Positions 4,021 to 46,453 of a stretch of 64,000 nucleotides of DNA are shown here, piece by piece. The stretch comes from Promethearchaeota archaeon. GTDB taxonomy: Archaea > Asgardarchaeota > Lokiarchaeia > Sigyniarchaeales > SOKP01. Under the pieces are notes generated by a model. The model had not been told where the DNA came from. It was given only the letters and a program-made list of their open reading frames with translations, and did no database searches. The stretch lies in contig JBHLOC010000006.1 in NCBI GenBank assembly GCA_048940925.1, positions 1-64,000 of the forward strand, written 5' to 3'. Within the stretch, counting starts at the first letter, position 1. Each line of letters starts with the position of its first letter. The position numbers and the translations under genes were made by a program.

Positions 4021-4674
4021 TTATGATTTTAAAACTATCTTTTTTTTTATTATTTTTCTTAACATTACTGATAATGCTGATTTTGATTTCCCTAATTTAT
4101 TTGCTAACTCTTCAAGTGAAATAATTCTAGGGACTTCAAAAAACCCAAGATTTATTGCTTTATCTAAAACATTTAATTCTTCTAGACTTAATTTGGATTT
4201 TTCTTCATCTATATCATAAGGGGAATTACCAATTCTAAGTAATTTGAAGTTAATATTGTTATTTTCAAAAAGAGTTAATAGTCTATCTATTCTCTCTCTT
4301 GAAGACACCAATCGCCAATATGCATATCCTTCTCTCACACTGACAGGGAAATTTACTAGAACACCACACTTTATAACTCCATACAATAAGTAGGGATCCT
4401 TGGTTTTCACATTAAAGGTAACCTTATTCTCTTTTCTATCTATTACACTCAATTCAAAGACAGAGGGATGATTTTTAATTACTTGTAATACAGAGTTTAA
4501 ATCGTAGTGAAGAATTTCTATAACTGCATTTCCAATTGATTTTTCAAGGTCATAAGGTAAAAAGTTAATAATCTCCATTCTAATATCATTGAATCTTTTA
4601 AAAATCTCTGAAATCCATAGTTGATCCGGAAATTTAATTTTTATACGTGCTAAACTTGATTTATTTGATACCAT
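4021..4674 (-). CDS. bacterio-opsin-activator (HTH_10)-type transcriptional regulator
   Basis: C-terminal L..A...GFFEVPR.ISLEELA..LG.SKS.LS..LR. Confidence 0.8.
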   Translation of the reverse strand: MVSNKSSLARIKIKFPDQLWISEIFKRFNDIRMEIINFLPYDLEKSIGNAVIEILHYDLNSVLQVIKNHPSVFELSVIDRKENKVTFNVKTKDPYLLYGVIKCGVLVNFPVSVREGYAYWRLVSSRERIDRLLTLFENNNINFKLLRIGNSPYDIDEEKSKLSLEELNVLDKAINLGFFEVPRIISLEELANKLGKSKSALSVMLRKIIKKKIVLKS

Positions 4675-39904: not shown

Positions 39905-40294
39905 ATGGGTTTTGATGATAAGTTTGATGAGGAATTTGATGAAGAATTTGATGAAGAATTAGACGAAGATTTAGAGGAACCTTCTTCAAAGACTCCAGAA
40001 GAAATAGTTGAATCTAAAACTCCAACCACTAGAGTAGTGACTGAGGGGAAAAAGATTTCATTATACTTTATGTCAACCATTGGACCAGGTGAAAAAAAAC
40101 AAAAATTAAATGTAAATACAGGTAATAACGTGGGAGACATTAAAGAAACGGTAGCAAATTTATTTGGATTAGATCCTGCTGATTTTCATTTGTCATCAGG
40201 TGGAGTTACAATGGATGAGAGCTCAGTTTTAAAAGATTATGATATAAGTGATGGTGACGATATACTTTTAATTCCAGCAAGTACAGCGGGTTAA
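39905..40294 (+). CDS. ubiquitin-like protein 1 (acidic N-terminal extension, C-terminus ...LIPASTAG)
   Basis: beta-grasp pattern V.DIKE.V....GL.P.DF.L...G..M.....L.DY.I..GD.I.LI. Confidence 0.88.
   Translation: MGFDDKFDEEFDEEFDEELDEDLEEPSSKTPEEIVESKTPTTRVVTEGKKISLYFMSTIGPGEKKQKLNVNTGNNVGDIKETVANLFGLDPADFHLSSGGVTMDESSVLKDYDISDGDDILLIPASTAG
39911..39970 (+). repeat. 12-bp in-frame tandem repeat (tttgatga[g/a]gaa) encoding FDEE units
   Basis: tttgatgataag tttgatgaggaa tttgatgaagaa tttgatgaagaa ttagacgaagat. Confidence 0.8.
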
Positions 40295-40343: not shown

Positions 40344-41138
40344 TTAGTTTTTTTCTTTCCTTGAGGGAATTAAGGCAATTTCATCATCATCATCAATATT
40401 AAAGTCTTTAATCTGAGAATGTTCATTTAATAATATCCCTCCAGAAGAAAGTAGAAAAGTCTCTAGATTATAATCAAATAATCTTCCTATTCTCTCTTTG
40501 ATATGACCTATTAGTTCACTAGTATCAATTATTATTATTTTTGTTATATCACCAGACTCAACTAATGATCTGATATAAACACGGATTTGATCTTTAATTT
40601 CAATAGCGTTTACAGGAGGTGTATAAGTAATTTCATCATTAGATTTATCTCTATTTCTTAACATATTTTTGATTAACACTTTTCTCTCATTTGAATCAAA
40701 GTAAAGCATTTCCCGGATAAATAAAATCTTATCCATCTTTGATAAATCTAGTAGGTGTATTTTATTTATTTCATCTTGACTAAAAACAGAAAATATATAT
40801 TTATCAATTATAGGCATATCTTTATAGGACTCATCAGATTCAACATAATCTTCAATTAAGGGTATAGCGTCAATATATTCTTCAATTATATCAGGTGGTT
40901 TCATATTAATTGATTTTAACTCAGGTAAGTATTTCTTTTTCTTTATTTTCTCATCCCAACTGCTTTTAGAACGTATAACTGTATATACTGTACTTGTGGA
41001 TAATATCGCAACACTACCTATGGTTAGAATGAGAAATAAGGAATAATTTTCTATTCGAAATAGGAAAAAAAAGGCATAAAGCACTATACAAACAGTATAA
41101 AGAATAATAACGCTTAAAATTCTATTTTTTTTCCTCAT
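40344..41138 (-). CDS. membrane-anchored protein with C-terminal ubiquitin-like domain lacking a terminal Gly
   Basis: Two N-terminal TM helices; C-terminal IG.IKE....LF......F.LSSGG..L.E.S..KD..I.D.D.I.LIPSRKEKN aligns with the flanking Ubls. Confidence 0.8.
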   Translation of the reverse strand: MRKKNRILSVIILYTVCIVLYAFFFLFRIENYSLFLILTIGSVAILSTSTVYTVIRSKSSWDEKIKKKKYLPELKSINMKPPDIIEEYIDAIPLIEDYVESDESYKDMPIIDKYIFSVFSQDEINKIHLLDLSKMDKILFIREMLYFDSNERKVLIKNMLRNRDKSNDEITYTPPVNAIEIKDQIRVYIRSLVESGDITKIIIIDTSELIGHIKERIGRLFDYNLETFLLSSGGILLNEHSQIKDFNIDDDDEIALIPSRKEKN

Positions 41139-41223
41139 GATTTTTTAATTAGATTATGTTCTGAATTTAAAATATATAATTTAAAATTTAAATGAGATTG
41201 GAATAAAATTGAAGTTTTTATTT

Positions 41224-41895
41224 TTATACACCTTGAATTAATTGGCTAATCTTTCTATAATTCTTTATGTTAAATTTGAATAACTTTCTTTTATTATCTT
41301 TCTCAATATTCACTAATTTCAGATCTTTTAAGATATTTAAATACTTTTTAATTGTATTATGATTTTTTTTTAATCCAGATGCTATTTCTGTAATCATTAG
41401 TGCTCTGTTTTCTTGATGCATAAAACTAATTATTTTTTGAAGAATTTCTTTCTTTAAATAATAATATAATTTATCATATTTAGGATTTGAATCAAATTTA
41501 AAAAAAATTCTATGATTGTTAATTTGTTTTGATCTCACAAATTGAAATTTTTCTAAACAAGATAAGTGCCATAAAGCTTGATTACTTCCAATATGTAGAG
41601 CTTTCATTATTTCATTAATATTTGATGGGCTTTTTTTAATATAATTAAAGATCTCATTTCTTTTTGGATGTTCAATAATATTATTTTTCATTAATCTTGT
41701 GCCTGGTAAAATAACTCTTTGTTTGATTAAATTCTTTAAAATTAACTCTATTCTATTCTCATTTATATTAGGATTGTACCTAACCCTATTATTAATGAAG
41801 GATACAATTTCTCTTAAAGAAAAAAAGGTTTTTTTTGCTAAATACTCTTCTACTAATTCAAGAACAACTGATTTTGCATTATTCAGAGAACTCAT
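41224..41895 (-). CDS. multi-winged-helix DNA-binding protein
   Basis: R.EIF.YI...P..I.EI...L.I......WHL..LE and ITEIA..L.....TI..YL..L..L.LV. Confidence 0.75.
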   Translation of the reverse strand: MSSLNNAKSVVLELVEEYLAKKTFFSLREIVSFINNRVRYNPNINENRIELILKNLIKQRVILPGTRLMKNNIIEHPKRNEIFNYIKKSPSNINEIMKALHIGSNQALWHLSCLEKFQFVRSKQINNHRIFFKFDSNPKYDKLYYYLKKEILQKIISFMHQENRALMITEIASGLKKNHNTIKKYLNILKDLKLVNIEKDNKRKLFKFNIKNYRKISQLIQGV

Positions 41896-42166
41896 AAGCC
41901 TATACTTTTATTCCATTGAAAATGTTAGTCTTGTAAGTTTGTATTCTCTCTAAAACAACATTTTATTAAATATATATAATAATAGGCATTCATACAATTT
42001 ATAATATAATTTCTTATAAGCCCTAATTTGTTGTTTCTCATTTTTAGTATAACAACAAAAAACTTCAAAATCATTCCAATGGGTTTTATAATATCTTTTT
42101 AATGCGATCTTATTAAGTTTAAAAAAAATTACAAAATATAAAATGATAAAAAAGGAAGTGTTTTGA

Positions 42167-42499
42167 ATGAGTTTTGATGAATTTGATGAGGATTTAGGTG
42201 AGGAGGAACCTTTAAAATCTAAAACTCCCGCCACTAAGACCCCTTCCGCAGGAAAAAAACTTACATTATATTTCATGTCAACGATTGGTCCTGGTGAAAA
42301 AAAGGAAAAGTTAACTGTAAATGACAGTAATCAAGTAAGAGATATTAAACGAACTTTAGGTAATTTATATGGACTTGATCCTAATGACTTTCATTTATCT
42401 TCTGGTGGAGTTACAATGGATGAAAATAGTTCTTTAAGAGACTATAATGTAAATGATGGCGATGATATTCTTTTGATCCCTGCGAGTACTGCTGGGTAA
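42167..42499 (+). CDS. ubiquitin-like protein 2 (C-terminus ...LIPASTAG)
   Basis: Close paralog of Ubl1 (LYFMSTIGPGEKK, DFHLSSGGVTMDE, GDDILLIPASTAG); directly upstream of E1. Confidence 0.9.
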   Translation: MSFDEFDEDLGEEEPLKSKTPATKTPSAGKKLTLYFMSTIGPGEKKEKLTVNDSNQVRDIKRTLGNLYGLDPNDFHLSSGGVTMDENSSLRDYNVNDGDDILLIPASTAG

Positions 42500-42577: not shown

Positions 42578-43813
42578 TTGGTGATAATATTGAAAAAGAG
42601 TTCAGATTTTTTTAGTAAAGACCTAACATCGGAAGAAAGAAATTTATATGACCGACAATTTAGACTCGAAGGGTGGTCACAGAAATTAGTAAAAAACTCT
42701 CGAGTGTTAATGGCTGGTGTAGGGGGATTAGGTTGTGAAATTGCAAAAAACCTGGCAATGTTGGGTGTAGGTCATATAGACCTAGTAGATTTAGATATCA
42801 TAGAGCATTCCAATTTAAATCGTCAAATTTTGTTTGCAGGTGCTAAATTAGGAGAACCTAAAGCTGTTGTAGCAGCAAAAAAATTAACTGAAATTAATCC
42901 TAACATAATTATCAATGGATATCATACTTCGTTAGAAAGATTGGATCCAGCATTATATCAAGCTGCTGATGTCGTTGTGGGGGGTCTAGACTCCATGAAT
43001 GCTCGGTTGAATTTAAATGCTCAATGTATAAGATTTAGAAAACCTTTAGTGGATGGAGGTGTTTCAGGTTATCATGGTCATGTTTATACTGTTTTTCCAT
43101 ACAAAAATGCATGTTATGAATGTAATCCACTCCCCGTAGGAGAAAGTGATGAGATGGCGGCATGTACAGTAGTAGGAGTGCCAAGAAAAAGAATCCATTG
43201 TGTTTTCAAAGGAGATATGGCCTTTAAGGAAGAATTTGACAGGGATCCTAATCCAAAGAACATAGATGACATAAAATATATTCAAAAAATTGCTAATGAA
43301 CTAGTAAATAAACATAACTTCCCCCCAGAGTATACTGAAGATGATATAGTCAAAATTATTGATAGGCATGATCCAGGAATTATCACCATCAATGCTGTTA
43401 TTTCAGCATTACAGTCGCATGAAGTCGTAAAAATTCTTCATTGGAATAAAGGTCATAAGGGTATCGGTAAACCTATTAAATCTTATGTTATTTTCAATGC
43501 TATGACAATGATGTTTTACCATATTGAAAAGAAAAGAAATCCAGAATGTTCTCAATGTGGAAAAAATGTTCGAAGATTCGTAGTGAAATTAAAAGAAAAC
43601 TCTCCATGTATTAATATAATCAAAACATTAGAAAAACATGGTTTTAAGTTAGATCCTGATCTCGAACCTGTTATAACATTACTAGATTTTAATGACGTCA
43701 AAATAATAGATTTAGAACAAAATCCAATTAAAAATGGTTTAAGAAATTATGAATTTATGACAGTTGCCGGGTTTATTGATGGAGAAATTTTTGTAACCTT
43801 AAAATTAAAATAA
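42578..43813 (+). CDS. E1 ubiquitin-activating enzyme (ThiF/Uba3-like)
   Basis: YDRQ, GVGGLGCEIAKNL, DLD.IE.SNLNRQ.LF, CYEC, catalytic ACT...PR...HC, RNPECSQC; start probably TTG at 42590 after GGTGA. Confidence 0.93.
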   Translation: MVIILKKSSDFFSKDLTSEERNLYDRQFRLEGWSQKLVKNSRVLMAGVGGLGCEIAKNLAMLGVGHIDLVDLDIIEHSNLNRQILFAGAKLGEPKAVVAAKKLTEINPNIIINGYHTSLERLDPALYQAADVVVGGLDSMNARLNLNAQCIRFRKPLVDGGVSGYHGHVYTVFPYKNACYECNPLPVGESDEMAACTVVGVPRKRIHCVFKGDMAFKEEFDRDPNPKNIDDIKYIQKIANELVNKHNFPPEYTEDDIVKIIDRHDPGIITINAVISALQSHEVVKILHWNKGHKGIGKPIKSYVIFNAMTMMFYHIEKKRNPECSQCGKNVRRFVVKLKENSPCINIIKTLEKHGFKLDPDLEPVITLLDFNDVKIIDLEQNPIKNGLRNYEFMTVAGFIDGEIFVTLKLK

Positions 43814-43923: not shown

Positions 43924-44451
43924 ATGAGTATAAGAAGTAGTCGAATCTCACAAGATTTTGCAGGATTAAAAAAATTATATAAACAAGGAACAATTGTTCA
44001 GTTAAAACCATTTAATCCCAATAGAAAGAGTATTGATCATTTAGCAATAACTATTAAAGGTCCTAAAGGTACTGCTTATGCGGGTGGTCTTTTTAAATTA
44101 GAAATGAAATTTCCTGCTCAGTATCCTAGGCAACCACCTTTTGTTAGATTACATACTCCAATTTGGCATCCAAATTTTTGGGCAAAACCGAGTGAGTATA
44201 CAGGTCAGAGGAATATTTGCTTAGCACTTGTAGATCCATCTTTAGTTGGAAAAAAAGGGGGGTGGAGCCCATCAAAAACAGCTGTTACCGTAGTTCAGGC
44301 TATAACTGCGATGTTAAATACACGAGGTAAGTATGTAAATCCAACTGATGTTTTTAACAAGAAAGCTGCAATAGAAATGATGAAAAATCAGAAGTTTTTT
44401 GAGAAAAAAGTCAAAAACCTTGTTAAAAAGTATGCTAATAAGAAATGGTGA
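43924..44451 (+). CDS. E2 ubiquitin-conjugating enzyme
   Basis: I.GP.GT.Y.GG.F.L...FP..YP..PP, WHPN, catalytic NICL, W.P. Confidence 0.93.
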   Translation: MSIRSSRISQDFAGLKKLYKQGTIVQLKPFNPNRKSIDHLAITIKGPKGTAYAGGLFKLEMKFPAQYPRQPPFVRLHTPIWHPNFWAKPSEYTGQRNICLALVDPSLVGKKGGWSPSKTAVTVVQAITAMLNTRGKYVNPTDVFNKKAAIEMMKNQKFFEKKVKNLVKKYANKKW

Positions 44452-45278
44452 AATTTAAAATGGGAGAAAGAGATTCACATATAGATTCCATTAAAAAAAC
44501 AATAAAATTGAAGATAAAAGATATAATTAAGAAGGAATTGCTGGAAGAAATCTTTGAAGAATTAAAATTGGAAGAGAAAGAATTAGTTAATGAAATTAGT
44601 TCGATGATTTCTAAAAAACCTCCTGAAAAGCAAATAATAAAACATTCAACTACTACACCTATCAAATCAAAAACAATAAAAGAAGAGAAAAAATATACAG
44701 ATGAAGATAAAATAGAAAAAGAAGTGTATATTTCGGTTAAAGCAATTCTAAAAGTAGCAAGTCATGCCCTAAAGTATGCGAATTCTAAAATTCCTAGACA
44801 AAATTGGGTAGAAGTAATAGGATTACTCGCAGGTAAAGTAGAAAATAACCGTAACATCTTACATATTGAAGATTACTATCCTATGGGTCATGGAACAGCT
44901 GTTTATGCTGAAATAAAAAATTATAAAAACTATGCTAGAGCTTTTCGAGATATTAAAAAGCAAAAGTTATTTATCTGTGGTTGGGCACATAGTCATCCTT
45001 CTTACGGATGTTTTATGTCTAATGAAGATATTGGTACTCAAACAAGATACCAAAAACTTTGGAATAAAGCTGTTGCCCTTGTAATCGATCCTTATCTTAT
45101 TGATGGAACTTCAGCTGGTTTTGAAATATATCGTGCAGATTTAACCACAAAAACTTGGTATCCTTTGGTTTATGGTATTAAAGGGTCATTAGATATTCGC
45201 ATGCTACCAGAAATACTAAATTTTATGAATCCGATAATTGAAGGGAAAGCAGTTTATCTCGAATATGATGAAAATTGA
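44445..45278 (+). CDS. JAMM/MPN+ metallo-isopeptidase (Rpn11/CSN5-like)
   Basis: EVIGLL.G, GW.HSHPSYGCFMS.EDI.TQ..YQ......VALVIDP. Confidence 0.92.
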   Translation: MVKFKMGERDSHIDSIKKTIKLKIKDIIKKELLEEIFEELKLEEKELVNEISSMISKKPPEKQIIKHSTTTPIKSKTIKEEKKYTDEDKIEKEVYISVKAILKVASHALKYANSKIPRQNWVEVIGLLAGKVENNRNILHIEDYYPMGHGTAVYAEIKNYKNYARAFRDIKKQKLFICGWAHSHPSYGCFMSNEDIGTQTRYQKLWNKAVALVIDPYLIDGTSAGFEIYRADLTTKTWYPLVYGIKGSLDIRMLPEILNFMNPIIEGKAVYLEYDEN

Positions 45279-46453
45279 AACAGATAAATTTTGGTGATTT
45301 TAGAACTGTGGCTAAAATTAAATCTGTGGCAATTGTTCTGGGGATATTTCTATTAATAGCTATAATACATGGTATTATATCAGATTCATTCAATGTATTT
45401 GTAAGTTGGATACTAATCGGAATATGGCTAATTTATTCTTTTAAAGTCTTAAAAAATATAAAACAATATCGAGAATTTAATTCTCCTCATAATACTGCTT
45501 TTTTTACCATTGGACCTGTATTTATTGGGATCTTTTATTCAACTTGGGGAAATTTTACTGGCATATTAGGCGAGAATCTCCTCGAGGGAACGGGATTATA
45601 TTTAAGTTGGTGGGGTATATTATTCGGCTTTCCTTATTTAGTATACGGATCTTATTCTTTATATCGGTGTTTCAAAAAATATAATGTAATATATTTTGGT
45701 ACGAAAGCGATAAATGCTCGTACAATTGGTTATTTACTATCTTTAATAGTTATTTTTTACATTATTTTTTATTGGATAATATTTTATGCTGTTATTGATT
45801 TTTATGATTCTATCTTAATCCCTGTTAATTTTTATGCAGATCTTAATCTTATACTCATACTTATTAGTACAATTTTAATTTTTATTATTTCTGGTATTTT
45901 TGGCACACAAAGAAGATTGCCCCCATTAACGAGAGATTATATTGCAAGACGTAGAAATAGATTAAATCATTTGACTTCTCCTCAGAGAAATTCAAATTCT
46001 AGAAAAAATAGTATAATCACAAATGGAACAACCAGATCATCTAGAATTACACCCACTACTCAAAGAAGATCAACTCAAACGAGTATAAAAACAACCTCTC
46101 GAACTGTAAGTAGAAAGAAAACATCAAAGCCTAGTATAATTCCCCACAGGACCATAAGCTCAAGGGACTTTAATAAGTACAAACCAAGAGCGGGGCTTCT
46201 TTCGGTAGAGGATTTTAAATGCATTTTTTGTTTTCATTTACCAAAATTGCCAGAAGATAAGGGTAGAGGAATAGTTTTATGTCCAAAATGTAGATATCCT
46301 GCTCATGCAGATGAATTTAAAGATTGGATGCAAAATTCAAATCTATGCTCAAGATGTAATGCGATAATTCCATCAAACTATAGAAGAAATCCTAAGATAA
46401 TCAGTATAAAAAACTATATTATTATCTATAAAAGTTTATTAAAAAAAAAATAA
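45275..46453 (+). CDS. multi-pass membrane protein with C-terminal RING-like finger (putative E3 ligase)
   Basis: About 6 TM helices, S/T/R-rich linker, CIFC-x16-CPKC-x4-H..E...W.....CSRC; overlaps the JAMM stop codon. Confidence 0.75.
   Translation: MKQINFGDFRTVAKIKSVAIVLGIFLLIAIIHGIISDSFNVFVSWILIGIWLIYSFKVLKNIKQYREFNSPHNTAFFTIGPVFIGIFYSTWGNFTGILGENLLEGTGLYLSWWGILFGFPYLVYGSYSLYRCFKKYNVIYFGTKAINARTIGYLLSLIVIFYIIFYWIIFYAVIDFYDSILIPVNFYADLNLILILISTILIFIISGIFGTQRRLPPLTRDYIARRRNRLNHLTSPQRNSNSRKNSIITNGTTRSSRITPTTQRRSTQTSIKTTSRTVSRKKTSKPSIIPHRTISSRDFNKYKPRAGLLSVEDFKCIFCFHLPKLPEDKGRGIVLCPKCRYPAHADEFKDWMQNSNLCSRCNAIIPSNYRRNPKIISIKNYIIIYKSLLKKK

Follow-up and report, generated by a model that had tools for sequence, protein, structure and literature searches.

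A membrane-tethered ubiquitin-like protein paired with a winged-helix gene in an Asgard archaeon: a possible membrane anti-regulator of an archaeal ubiquitin-like system

Results

The stretch of DNA analysed here (the window) comprises 64,000 nucleotides (nt) of a Promethearchaeota archaeon (GenBank assembly GCA_048940925.1, contig JBHLOC010000006.1, positions 1 to 64,000), and our subject within it is TM-Ubl, a gene whose product carries transmembrane (TM) helices at its N-terminus and a ubiquitin-like (UBL) domain at its C-terminus, together with the winged helix-turn-helix (wHTH) gene that precedes it. An earlier note on this sequence had placed TM-Ubl antisense between two free Ubl genes and 3' of the wHTH gene; the coordinates agree, with 85 nt separating it from the wHTH gene (Table 1). 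The G+C content of the window is ∼28%, and its closest relatives are metagenome-assembled genomes labelled Promethearchaeota or Lokiarchaeota. A word-indexed search returned 383 homologues of TM-Ubl at E≤1e-3, nearly all of them 264 amino acids (aa) long and conserved over their full length. PADLOC, when run on the locus, reported only generic E1 and helix-turn-helix similarities and made no defence-system assignment.

Table 1. Positions of TM-Ubl, its parts and the neighbouring genes and promoter elements in the window.
Feature	Position	Strand	Basis or remark
Ubl1, 129 aa, ends STAG, convergent with TM-Ubl	39905-40294	+	no 22-nt element upstream
TM-Ubl gene, 264 aa (P0001)	40344-41138	-	open frame
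Basic tail RKEKN and stop codon, no terminal Gly	40344-40361	-	
Ubiquitin-like beta-grasp domain, residues ∼182-259	40362-40595	-	BLASTP against Ubl1/Ubl2; AlphaFold2; Foldseek
MID domain, residues ∼81-166, five helices	40641-40898	-	predicted docking site for wHTH; pLDDT 80-88
TM helix 2, residues ∼33-55, then basic stretch	40974-41042	-	hydropathy; AlphaFold2 helix 32-65
TM helix 1, residues ∼7-27, MRKKNR before it	41058-41120	-	hydropathy 2.3-2.7; AlphaFold2 helix 2-26
TM-Ubl promoter region, intergenic	41139-41223	-	22-nt element at 41197-41218, 3 nt, then TATA-like TTTAAAT/TTATATAT
Winged-helix protein (wHTH), 223 aa, ArsR-like wHTH 73-124, second wHTH 148-210	41224-41895	-	
Second exact copy of the 22-nt element, 86 nt upstream of Ubl2	42059-42080	+	3 nt, then TTTTATAATAT
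Ubl2, 110 aa, ends STAG, first gene of the Ubl2-E1-E2-JAMM-RING operon	42167-42499	+	
E1	42578-43813	+	Pfam ThiF 198 bits
E2	43924-44451	+	Pfam UQ_con 91 bits
JAMM	44445-45278	+	Pfam JAB 52 bits
Polytopic TM protein with C-terminal RING-like finger	45275-46453	+	

Two N-terminal TM helices had been proposed for TM-Ubl, and two lines of evidence agree on them: Kyte-Doolittle hydropathy yields two segments (residues ∼7–27 and ∼33–55) with a loop of ∼5 residues between them, and an AlphaFold2 model built from an alignment of 37 homologues has helices at residues 2–26 and 32–65, followed by a five-helix domain at 81–161 and a beta-grasp domain at 184–258. Because the hydrophobic segments are flanked by positive charges, with MRKKNR on one side and a Lys-rich stretch on the other, both ends of the hairpin should face the cytoplasm. 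TM-Ubl is thus predicted to combine an integral UBL domain with a membrane anchor facing the cytoplasm. TM helix 2 is rich in Ser, Thr and Gly and is highly conserved (G41, S42, V43, L46, S47, T50, Y52, and T53).

In BLASTP comparisons, residues 165–259 of TM-Ubl align with Ubl1 at 34% identity (E 2e-16) and residues 173–259 with Ubl2 at 30% identity (E 1e-15), the core being ungapped in both alignments; Ubl1 and Ubl2 are 67% identical to each other. The motifs on which the kinship had been proposed (IK, LF/LY, F.LSSGG, KD(F/Y), and D..I.LIP) are all present. The fold, which the earlier note had named as one of the points on which its proposal could fail, is supported by both the model and Foldseek: the domain has the topology bb-a-bb-3(10)-b with a pLDDT of 75–89 over residues 184–258 (strands 184–191, 198–205, 228–232, and 252–258; helix 210–221), and Foldseek matched it to ubiquitin, NEDD8, SUMO and Caldiarchaeum Ub with TM-scores on the target of 0.8–0.93, Caldiarchaeum Ub (6fno_D) being among the top structural matches. 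Pfam PF00240 scores 20.7 bits on this copy, below the threshold of 25.4, and a precomputed PF00240 match is present in many orthologues.

TM-Ubl ends in LIPSRKEKN. Among the 120 homologues listed, the family tail consists of IPSRK and 0–8 variable, mostly basic residues in which Gly is sporadic; all C-termini among the homologues listed run to DDDDEIALIPSRK and then 0–8 variable residues, the variants including IPSRK, IPSRKEKN, IPSRKEKNLKKKN, and IPHRL. Since the tail is variable and no Gly is conserved within the last ∼25 residues, the domain is non-conjugatable as a family trait, which bears out for the whole family what had been proposed for the single sequence. In our own alignment, the counterparts of the Ile44/Val70 patch of ubiquitin are kept as L230 and I257, and recognition of the UBL domain by Ubl-binding partners therefore remains plausible.

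In an unrooted maximum likelihood tree of 34 UBL domains, those of TM-Ubl proteins form a single clade (support 100/99) on a long branch, and the branches inside this clade are longer than those among the free Ubls. The TM-Ubl domain thus belongs to the same Ubl family and is not a recent copy of Ubl1 or Ubl2; a recent duplication is ruled out by the separate, long-branched clade. The nearest neighbours of the clade are two N-terminally extended soluble Ubls of genus g11 ending in IPSRVAG, which branch (unresolved) on the free-Ubl side of the long branch and outside the clade of the other free Ubls. One of these (L074:8619-9401, minus strand) is a soluble 260-aa protein with a long N-terminal extension, and its C-terminal Ubl is 45% identical to the TM-Ubl domain and has in common with it the SR following IP; the second locus is L075, around 4187-4468 (minus strand). 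A comparable arrangement, with a weak match to Roadblock/LC7, is seen in protein P0140.

The apparent spacer between the anchor and the UBL domain is a conserved helical domain in its own right, not previously described, which we call MID. It has no Pfam or NCBIfam family match; a PDB profile search gave a best E of 0.056 to an unrelated entry, Foldseek a best E of 2.9, and VIA-align in its wide mode only generic three-helix bundles (Z≤5.7) over model residues 41–90 only, and there was no usable match in the ESM Atlas. The wHTH protein matches known families: HTH_5 (ArsR-type, 33.5 bits) and HrcA_DNA-bdg (29 bits) in Pfam, both above threshold, weakly ArsR/SdpR-like families in NCBIfam, and, as its best PDB profile match, 2p4w of the ArsR family. 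ESCRT-II families were not matched in searches to E 0.1. The wHTH gene lies directly upstream of TM-Ubl (∼85–95 nt) and on the same strand in all loci listed whose contig reaches that far. One wHTH orthologue (L012:9241-9909) has a single in-frame stop codon, which may be a sequencing error or mark a pseudogene.

The complex of wHTH (alignment of 20 sequences) with residues 75–264 of TM-Ubl (alignment of 37) was predicted with an ipSAE of 0.79, the median of runs at 0.80, 0.77, and 0.79, while the best control reached 0.00. In calibration, the ipSAE mark was passed by 58 of 80 solved complexes versus 2 of 110 mismatched pairs, a yardstick that is rough here since custom alignments were used. 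At least 92% of contacts agree between runs, and the pLDDT of the partner is at least 80. The predicted interface pairs wHTH residues 15–129, which cover the first two winged-helix domains (WH1 and WH2) and include helix 103–118, with TM-Ubl residues 85–181 (MID and linker), and it takes in seven of the nine invariant MID residues (Y88, P93, Y98, F116, L130, F140, and L155). The UBL domain takes no part in it. MID, not the UBL domain, is thus predicted to dock the wHTH protein; we know of no solved complex like this one.

MID is not confined to TM-Ubl. A module search covering 1.8 billion cluster representatives found it (residues ∼77–166) also at the extreme C-terminus of large surface proteins. 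These contain regions of the beta-helix/NosD, Ig-like, WD40/PQQ-propeller or BNR type together with a TM helix, and a small Cys/His finger is often present as well; a Ser-rich TM helix homologous to TM helix 2 of TM-Ubl precedes MID in these paralogous receptors too. MID is all but restricted to the GTDB family in which TM-Ubl occurs, where 109 of 134 genomes have it; beyond that, a neighbouring family contributes two genomes. Genomes of genera g5 and g6 encode 4–10 such MID-tail proteins each; the window's own genome has MID in TM-Ubl only, plus one weak 97-aa open reading frame (ORF) on contig C35. Of 20 MID-tail genes in five genomes, at least 15 have a wHTH paralogue on the same strand no more than a few kb away, in most cases immediately upstream. 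Inspection of the pair architecture in six loci (L077, L109, L110, L111, L112, and L113) showed, in five of them, a wHTH gene followed by a surface protein of 614–1507 aa that has a hydrophobic segment at its N-terminus, a TM helix late in the chain and MID as its C-terminal end; the remaining locus, L113, has several short MID proteins (168–286 aa) in place of the large one. The wHTH proteins are ∼216–229 aa long (282 aa in L113). We conclude that the wHTH and MID-tail pairs in sister genera look like an undescribed archaeal receptor-regulator module.

Several further features of this family were noted. One member of it lies at L077:5147-7828 (minus strand), a locus whose MID receptor is of the propeller type. 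In two loci, a half-size wHTH ORF of 135–141 aa, matching regulator positions ∼12–130, lies between the full wHTH gene and the MID receptor (L109:1368-1790, plus strand; L110:4079-4483, minus strand). Between their TM helix and MID, many MID-tail proteins carry a Cys/His finger with eight ligands (CxxH...CxxC...CxxC...CWxC), seen within the C-terminal ∼150 aa of P0154, P0160, P0161, P0165, P0170, P0174, and P0175, and P0177 has a similar finger at its C-terminus, after MID. No RING match was obtained from Pfam for the finger, which may form a module of the ligase-like or zinc-ribbon kind.

The 85-nt spacer between wHTH and TM-Ubl contains AAAACTTCAATTTTATTCCAAT, 3 nt before a TATA-like sequence, and is conserved across 23 aligned loci whose proteins share only 55–80% identity. 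The 22-nt element reads AAAACTnCAAnnTnATTCCAA. Its second copy, on the Ubl2 side, has the same orientation relative to its gene and is equally conserved, and the element is kept across 19–23 loci. Counting the pattern AAAACTnCAAnnTnATTCCAAn over the whole 4.8-Mb genome, we found zero-mismatch occurrences at only two places, before TM-Ubl and before Ubl2; a copy with one mismatch lies 77 nt upstream of a third Ubl gene, Ubl3, on contig C41, and there is one further one-mismatch site on contig C11. In genus g5, the element is found with 1–3 mismatches upstream of TM-Ubl, of Ubl2, and of a split-off E2-JAMM-RING sub-operon, and it is missing upstream of Ubl in those g6 and g11 operons that have no adjacent wHTH-TM-Ubl pair. 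Archaeal activators usually bind directly upstream of the TATA box, and we infer that the local wHTH protein is the binder of the element.

Ubl3 (128 aa; G000:C41:254000-254481, equivalent to L114:5099-5485) is followed by a gene for an 861-aa NosD/beta-helix/Ig protein (L114:5717-8302). In one g5 locus, the element (L117:4323-4343, minus strand, one mismatch) stands 62 nt upstream of E2, and an insertion of ∼1.1 kb separates E1 from E2. The divergent intergenic region between Ubl2 and wHTH (41896-42166) contains further conserved blocks, e.g., ACTTAATAAAATCGCATTAAAA and AAGAAATTATATTATAAATTGTATGAA near the wHTH start.

Across the phylum, 400 genomes were surveyed, and full-length TM-Ubl was found in four genera only (g1, g12, and parts of g5 and g11), all of one GTDB family. 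Genus g6 has an E1 orthologue (66% identity) and a free Ubl, the gene for which directly faces a coiled-coil gene, and has no TM-Ubl. In genus g2, where genome completeness reaches 100%, the TM-Ubl/Ubl profile matched nothing; E1 was looked for in a single g2 genome (G147), in which no close orthologue turned up, the best match being 43% identical and of partial length. In this survey, TM-Ubl was thus seen only in genomes that have the Ubl system, a system that can do without it. Co-occurrence with the Ub-like operon, the other point on which the proposal of the earlier note could fail, held wherever TM-Ubl was found.

In 72 loci, the gene order is almost invariant: amidohydrolase-MptA-TM-RING-JAMM-E2-E1-Ubl2, then wHTH-TM-Ubl, then Ubl1, then coiled coil-NTase-PHP-FtsZ. 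The exceptions are informative. The E1 operon is 37 kb away in G207 and 100 kb away in G189, with wHTH, TM-Ubl and Ubl1 still together; among the loci listed, insertions lie between Ubl2 and wHTH or between TM-Ubl and Ubl1 and none between wHTH and TM-Ubl; and in genus g11 the pair forms a separate cassette apart from the main operon (TM-Ubl<-wHTH, then ->Ubl). These exceptions identify wHTH, TM-Ubl, and a divergently transcribed free Ubl as the stable unit. An E1 fragment (residues 2–97, 79% identity) beside the Ubl2-wHTH-TM-Ubl cluster of G189 (G189:C1:671919-672206) results from a rearrangement that ran through the E1 gene, or else from faulty assembly. The same synteny has been deposited under other names (L035, accession DATKTW010000117.1, and L002, L009, L017, and L043), namely Nanopelagicaceae bacterium, Hodarchaeota, Hermodarchaeota, Thorarchaeota, and Odinarchaeota, probably owing to binning contamination or loose labels.

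Discussion

The predicted binding of MID to wHTH and the expanded family of TM-MID and wHTH pairs shift the likeliest role of TM-Ubl from the adaptor of endoplasmic reticulum-associated degradation (ERAD) type that had been suggested by analogy to that of a membrane anti-regulator. We lean towards the reading that TM-Ubl is a membrane anti-regulator of the wHTH protein in which the sensor position is filled by a non-conjugatable UBL domain, and think that the pair probably controls the cell's ubiquitin-like tagging genes. The two-helix hairpin would anchor the protein facing the cytoplasm and MID would dock the first two winged-helix domains of wHTH, so that TM-Ubl most likely holds the regulator at the membrane and thereby sequesters it. 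Once freed, the regulator would act on the 22-nt element that precedes a TATA-like box at TM-Ubl, at the Ubl2-E1-E2-JAMM-RING operon, and at Ubl3. The cytoplasmic UBL domain, mimicking free Ubl, would take the input position that is held in the sibling pairs by a large extracellular domain, and it may report the state of the tagging pathway either when E1, E2, JAMM, E3 or a Ubl receptor binds it or when the tether is turned over, thereby coupling expression of the Ubl genes to pathway load. Because the tether gene itself carries the element, such a circuit would be self-limiting, as in sigma/anti-sigma operons. Other conceivable routes of input are competition with free Ubl and recruitment of the membrane RING ligase, and it may be speculated that the conserved Ser/Thr/Gly-rich TM helix 2 would suit intramembrane cleavage. 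A more specific proposal, to which we give tentative and lesser credence, is that of a product-mimic feedback sensor, in which the tethered UBL domain competes with free Ubl for E1, E2, JAMM or a Ubl receptor or serves as a degradation handle and pathway occupancy decides on release of wHTH. A decoy role for the UBL domain, one of those suggested in the earlier note, is compatible with the data.

What one expects of an anti-regulator can be compared with what was found. The adjacent, co-oriented gene is conserved together with the regulator. That its cytoplasmic domain binds the regulator is supported in silico only, by the predicted complex. The wHTH gene is the only regulator gene in the cassette, and together with the Ubl-specific promoter element this points to a dedicated transcription factor.

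Several points weigh against this reading. There is no copy of the 22-nt element upstream of Ubl1, and a factor other than wHTH could bind the element. Co-localisation with the operon largely reflects 20 kb of conserved synteny inside one family. The predicted MID interface covers the recognition helix of WH2 (103–118), and the candidate recognition helices of WH2 and of the third winged-helix domain (WH3) are similarly conserved among the wHTH paralogues. Conservation of this kind suits a shared protein partner better than distinct DNA targets, and the wHTH protein may thus be no transcription factor at all. For the same reason, specificity conferred by a variable WH3 helix was considered and rejected.

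These last points would fit a reading in which the wHTH/MID pairs are non-transcriptional, with wHTH acting as a cytoplasmic adaptor (in the manner in which ESCRT-II or cullins use winged helices) that connects surface-protein tails with machinery for sorting or with the cytoskeleton, and with TM-Ubl mimicking ubiquitylated cargo. Besides the conserved WH2 and WH3 helices and an interface that uses the WH2 recognition helix, the partners themselves would fit, being large surface proteins with beta-helix, propeller or Ig regions, some of which have a cytoplasmic Zn finger. However, wHTH matches DNA-binding families of the ArsR/HTH_5 and HrcA type and not ESCRT-II, at E up to 0.1, and the Ubl-specific promoter element, with wHTH as the sole regulator gene in the cassette, speaks for a dedicated transcription factor; we regard this alternative as quite improbable. 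Somewhat less so, but still unlikely, is that TM-Ubl serves as a membrane adaptor of the tagging machinery similar to MUB/UBL3 or HERP/TMUB, its UBL domain recruiting E2, E1, JAMM, or a receptor of the proteasome/Cdc48 type to the vicinity of the RING protein, and wHTH being a scaffold or substrate. The positions of the hydrophobic patch are retained in the UBL fold, which lacks a terminal Gly, the E3 candidate of the operon is itself polytopic, TM-Ubl was found only in genomes that also carry the Ubl system, and the UBL domain, which the model leaves clear of wHTH, would be available to a different partner. But genus g6 runs the operon without TM-Ubl, and an adaptor role explains neither why MID-wHTH pairing recurs with receptors that have no UBL domain nor why the promoter element is shared. 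Of the earlier note, the membrane anchor, the UBL fold, its non-conjugatable nature and the co-occurrence with the operon stand. Its HERP/TMUB analogy is only partly supported: apart from the fold, Pfam and NCBIfam show nothing that relates TM-Ubl to HERP, TMUB or MUB, and the MID/wHTH pairing goes unexplained.

It has also to be asked whether TM-Ubl is a precursor or a conjugatable form after all, either trimmed at its tail by the JAMM protease, attached to targets as a membrane protein, or used as an acceptor or primer for Ubl chains. A few orthologues have, by chance, a C-terminal Gly, hardly any variation is seen at K200 and K214, and Rpn11 of Caldiarchaeum is reported to process a Ub precursor (PMC6043591). 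The absence of a conserved Gly from the last ∼25 residues, in a tail that varies in both length and sequence, led us to reject a conjugatable or precursor form; C-terminal conjugation of an integral membrane protein is moreover implausible, and no evidence was found for the acceptor or primer role that the earlier note had included among its suggestions. We consider this explanation very improbable indeed.

Proteins with a UBL domain that is not conjugated, like membrane-tethered transcription factors under the control of ubiquitin, are considered inventions of eukaryotes. TM-Ubl is an Asgard archaeal protein that joins a membrane anchor, a predicted regulator-docking module and a ubiquitin fold within a complete Ubl-E1-E2-JAMM-RING locus. 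If the anti-regulator model is true, it would provide a regulatory circuit for an archaeal ubiquitin-like system, a first proposed function for an integral UBL domain in archaea, and a new receptor-to-regulator module, consisting of a MID tail and a tandem winged-helix protein, that has been expanded on large surface proteins in sister genera. If the product-mimic proposal is true as well, a close prokaryotic relative of eukaryotes would have a membrane-tethered transcription switch under control of its ubiquitin pathway, with a logic like that of Nrf1 or Spt23, and this switch would be one member of a wider, undescribed family of archaeal transmembrane receptors signalling through a MID tail and a cognate winged-helix protein. 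Because the parts are small and, apart from the anchor, soluble, the central claims are directly testable in vitro.

A literature search returned no account, for Asgard archaea, of a UBL tethered to the membrane or of paired MID and winged-helix genes. To our knowledge, no membrane-tethered UBL or paired winged-helix gene is known from the ubiquitin-like operon of Caldiarchaeum subterraneum either. That operon (Ub-E1-E2-RING-Rpn11) is of the same archaeal kind as the one described here (PMC5654768, PMC6043591). Its modifier ends in Gly-Gly after processing, whereas the UBL domain of TM-Ubl has no terminal Gly.

The closest parallels for the pair as a whole are in bacteria, where membrane anti-sigma factors are paired with extracytoplasmic function (ECF) sigma factors (RseA-sigmaE, RsgI-SigI) and where, in the SdpI-SdpR pair of B. 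subtilis, an ArsR-type winged-helix protein is held by a membrane protein. As in these systems, the TM-Ubl locus has the gene of a regulator next to that of a membrane protein whose cytoplasmic domain is predicted to bind it, the paralogous wHTH/MID pairs carry different sensor domains on a constant docking module, and the tether gene carries the promoter element of the putative regulon. Like SdpR, the regulator is an ArsR-type winged-helix protein. In contrast to both, MID has no sequence or fold similarity to anti-sigma domains or SdpI, its partner is a tandem winged-helix, ArsR-like protein and not a sigma factor, and the sensor position is occupied by a cytoplasmic ubiquitin-like domain.

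Eukaryotic parallels concern the UBL domain and the logic of the circuit. MUB/UBL3 proteins are membrane-anchored ubiquitin-fold proteins of eukaryotes that are attached by C-terminal prenylation. TM-Ubl resembles them in having a non-conjugatable ubiquitin-fold domain that would be fixed on the cytoplasmic face of the membrane, but it has a TM hairpin, MID and a paired regulator, is not related to them in sequence beyond the fold, and has no C-terminal Cys and so no CAAX box for prenylation; ubiquitin is its only Pfam or NCBIfam match. With the ERAD proteins HERP, TMUB1, and TMUB2, it shares TM segments, an integral, non-conjugated UBL domain and the vicinity of a polytopic RING ligase, here a candidate one; no homology to them was detected, however, the domain order differs (the UBL domain is N-terminal in HERP), and MID and wHTH have no counterpart. 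Yeast Spt23 and Mga2 and mammalian Nrf1 are membrane-held transcription regulators whose release is tied to the ubiquitin/proteasome pathway, and in the case of Nrf1 the targets lie within that pathway. The circuit proposed for TM-Ubl would follow the same logic of a membrane-held regulator coupled to the pathway, with the difference that in those systems the factor is itself a membrane protein released by processing, whereas here the tether and the factor are separate proteins.

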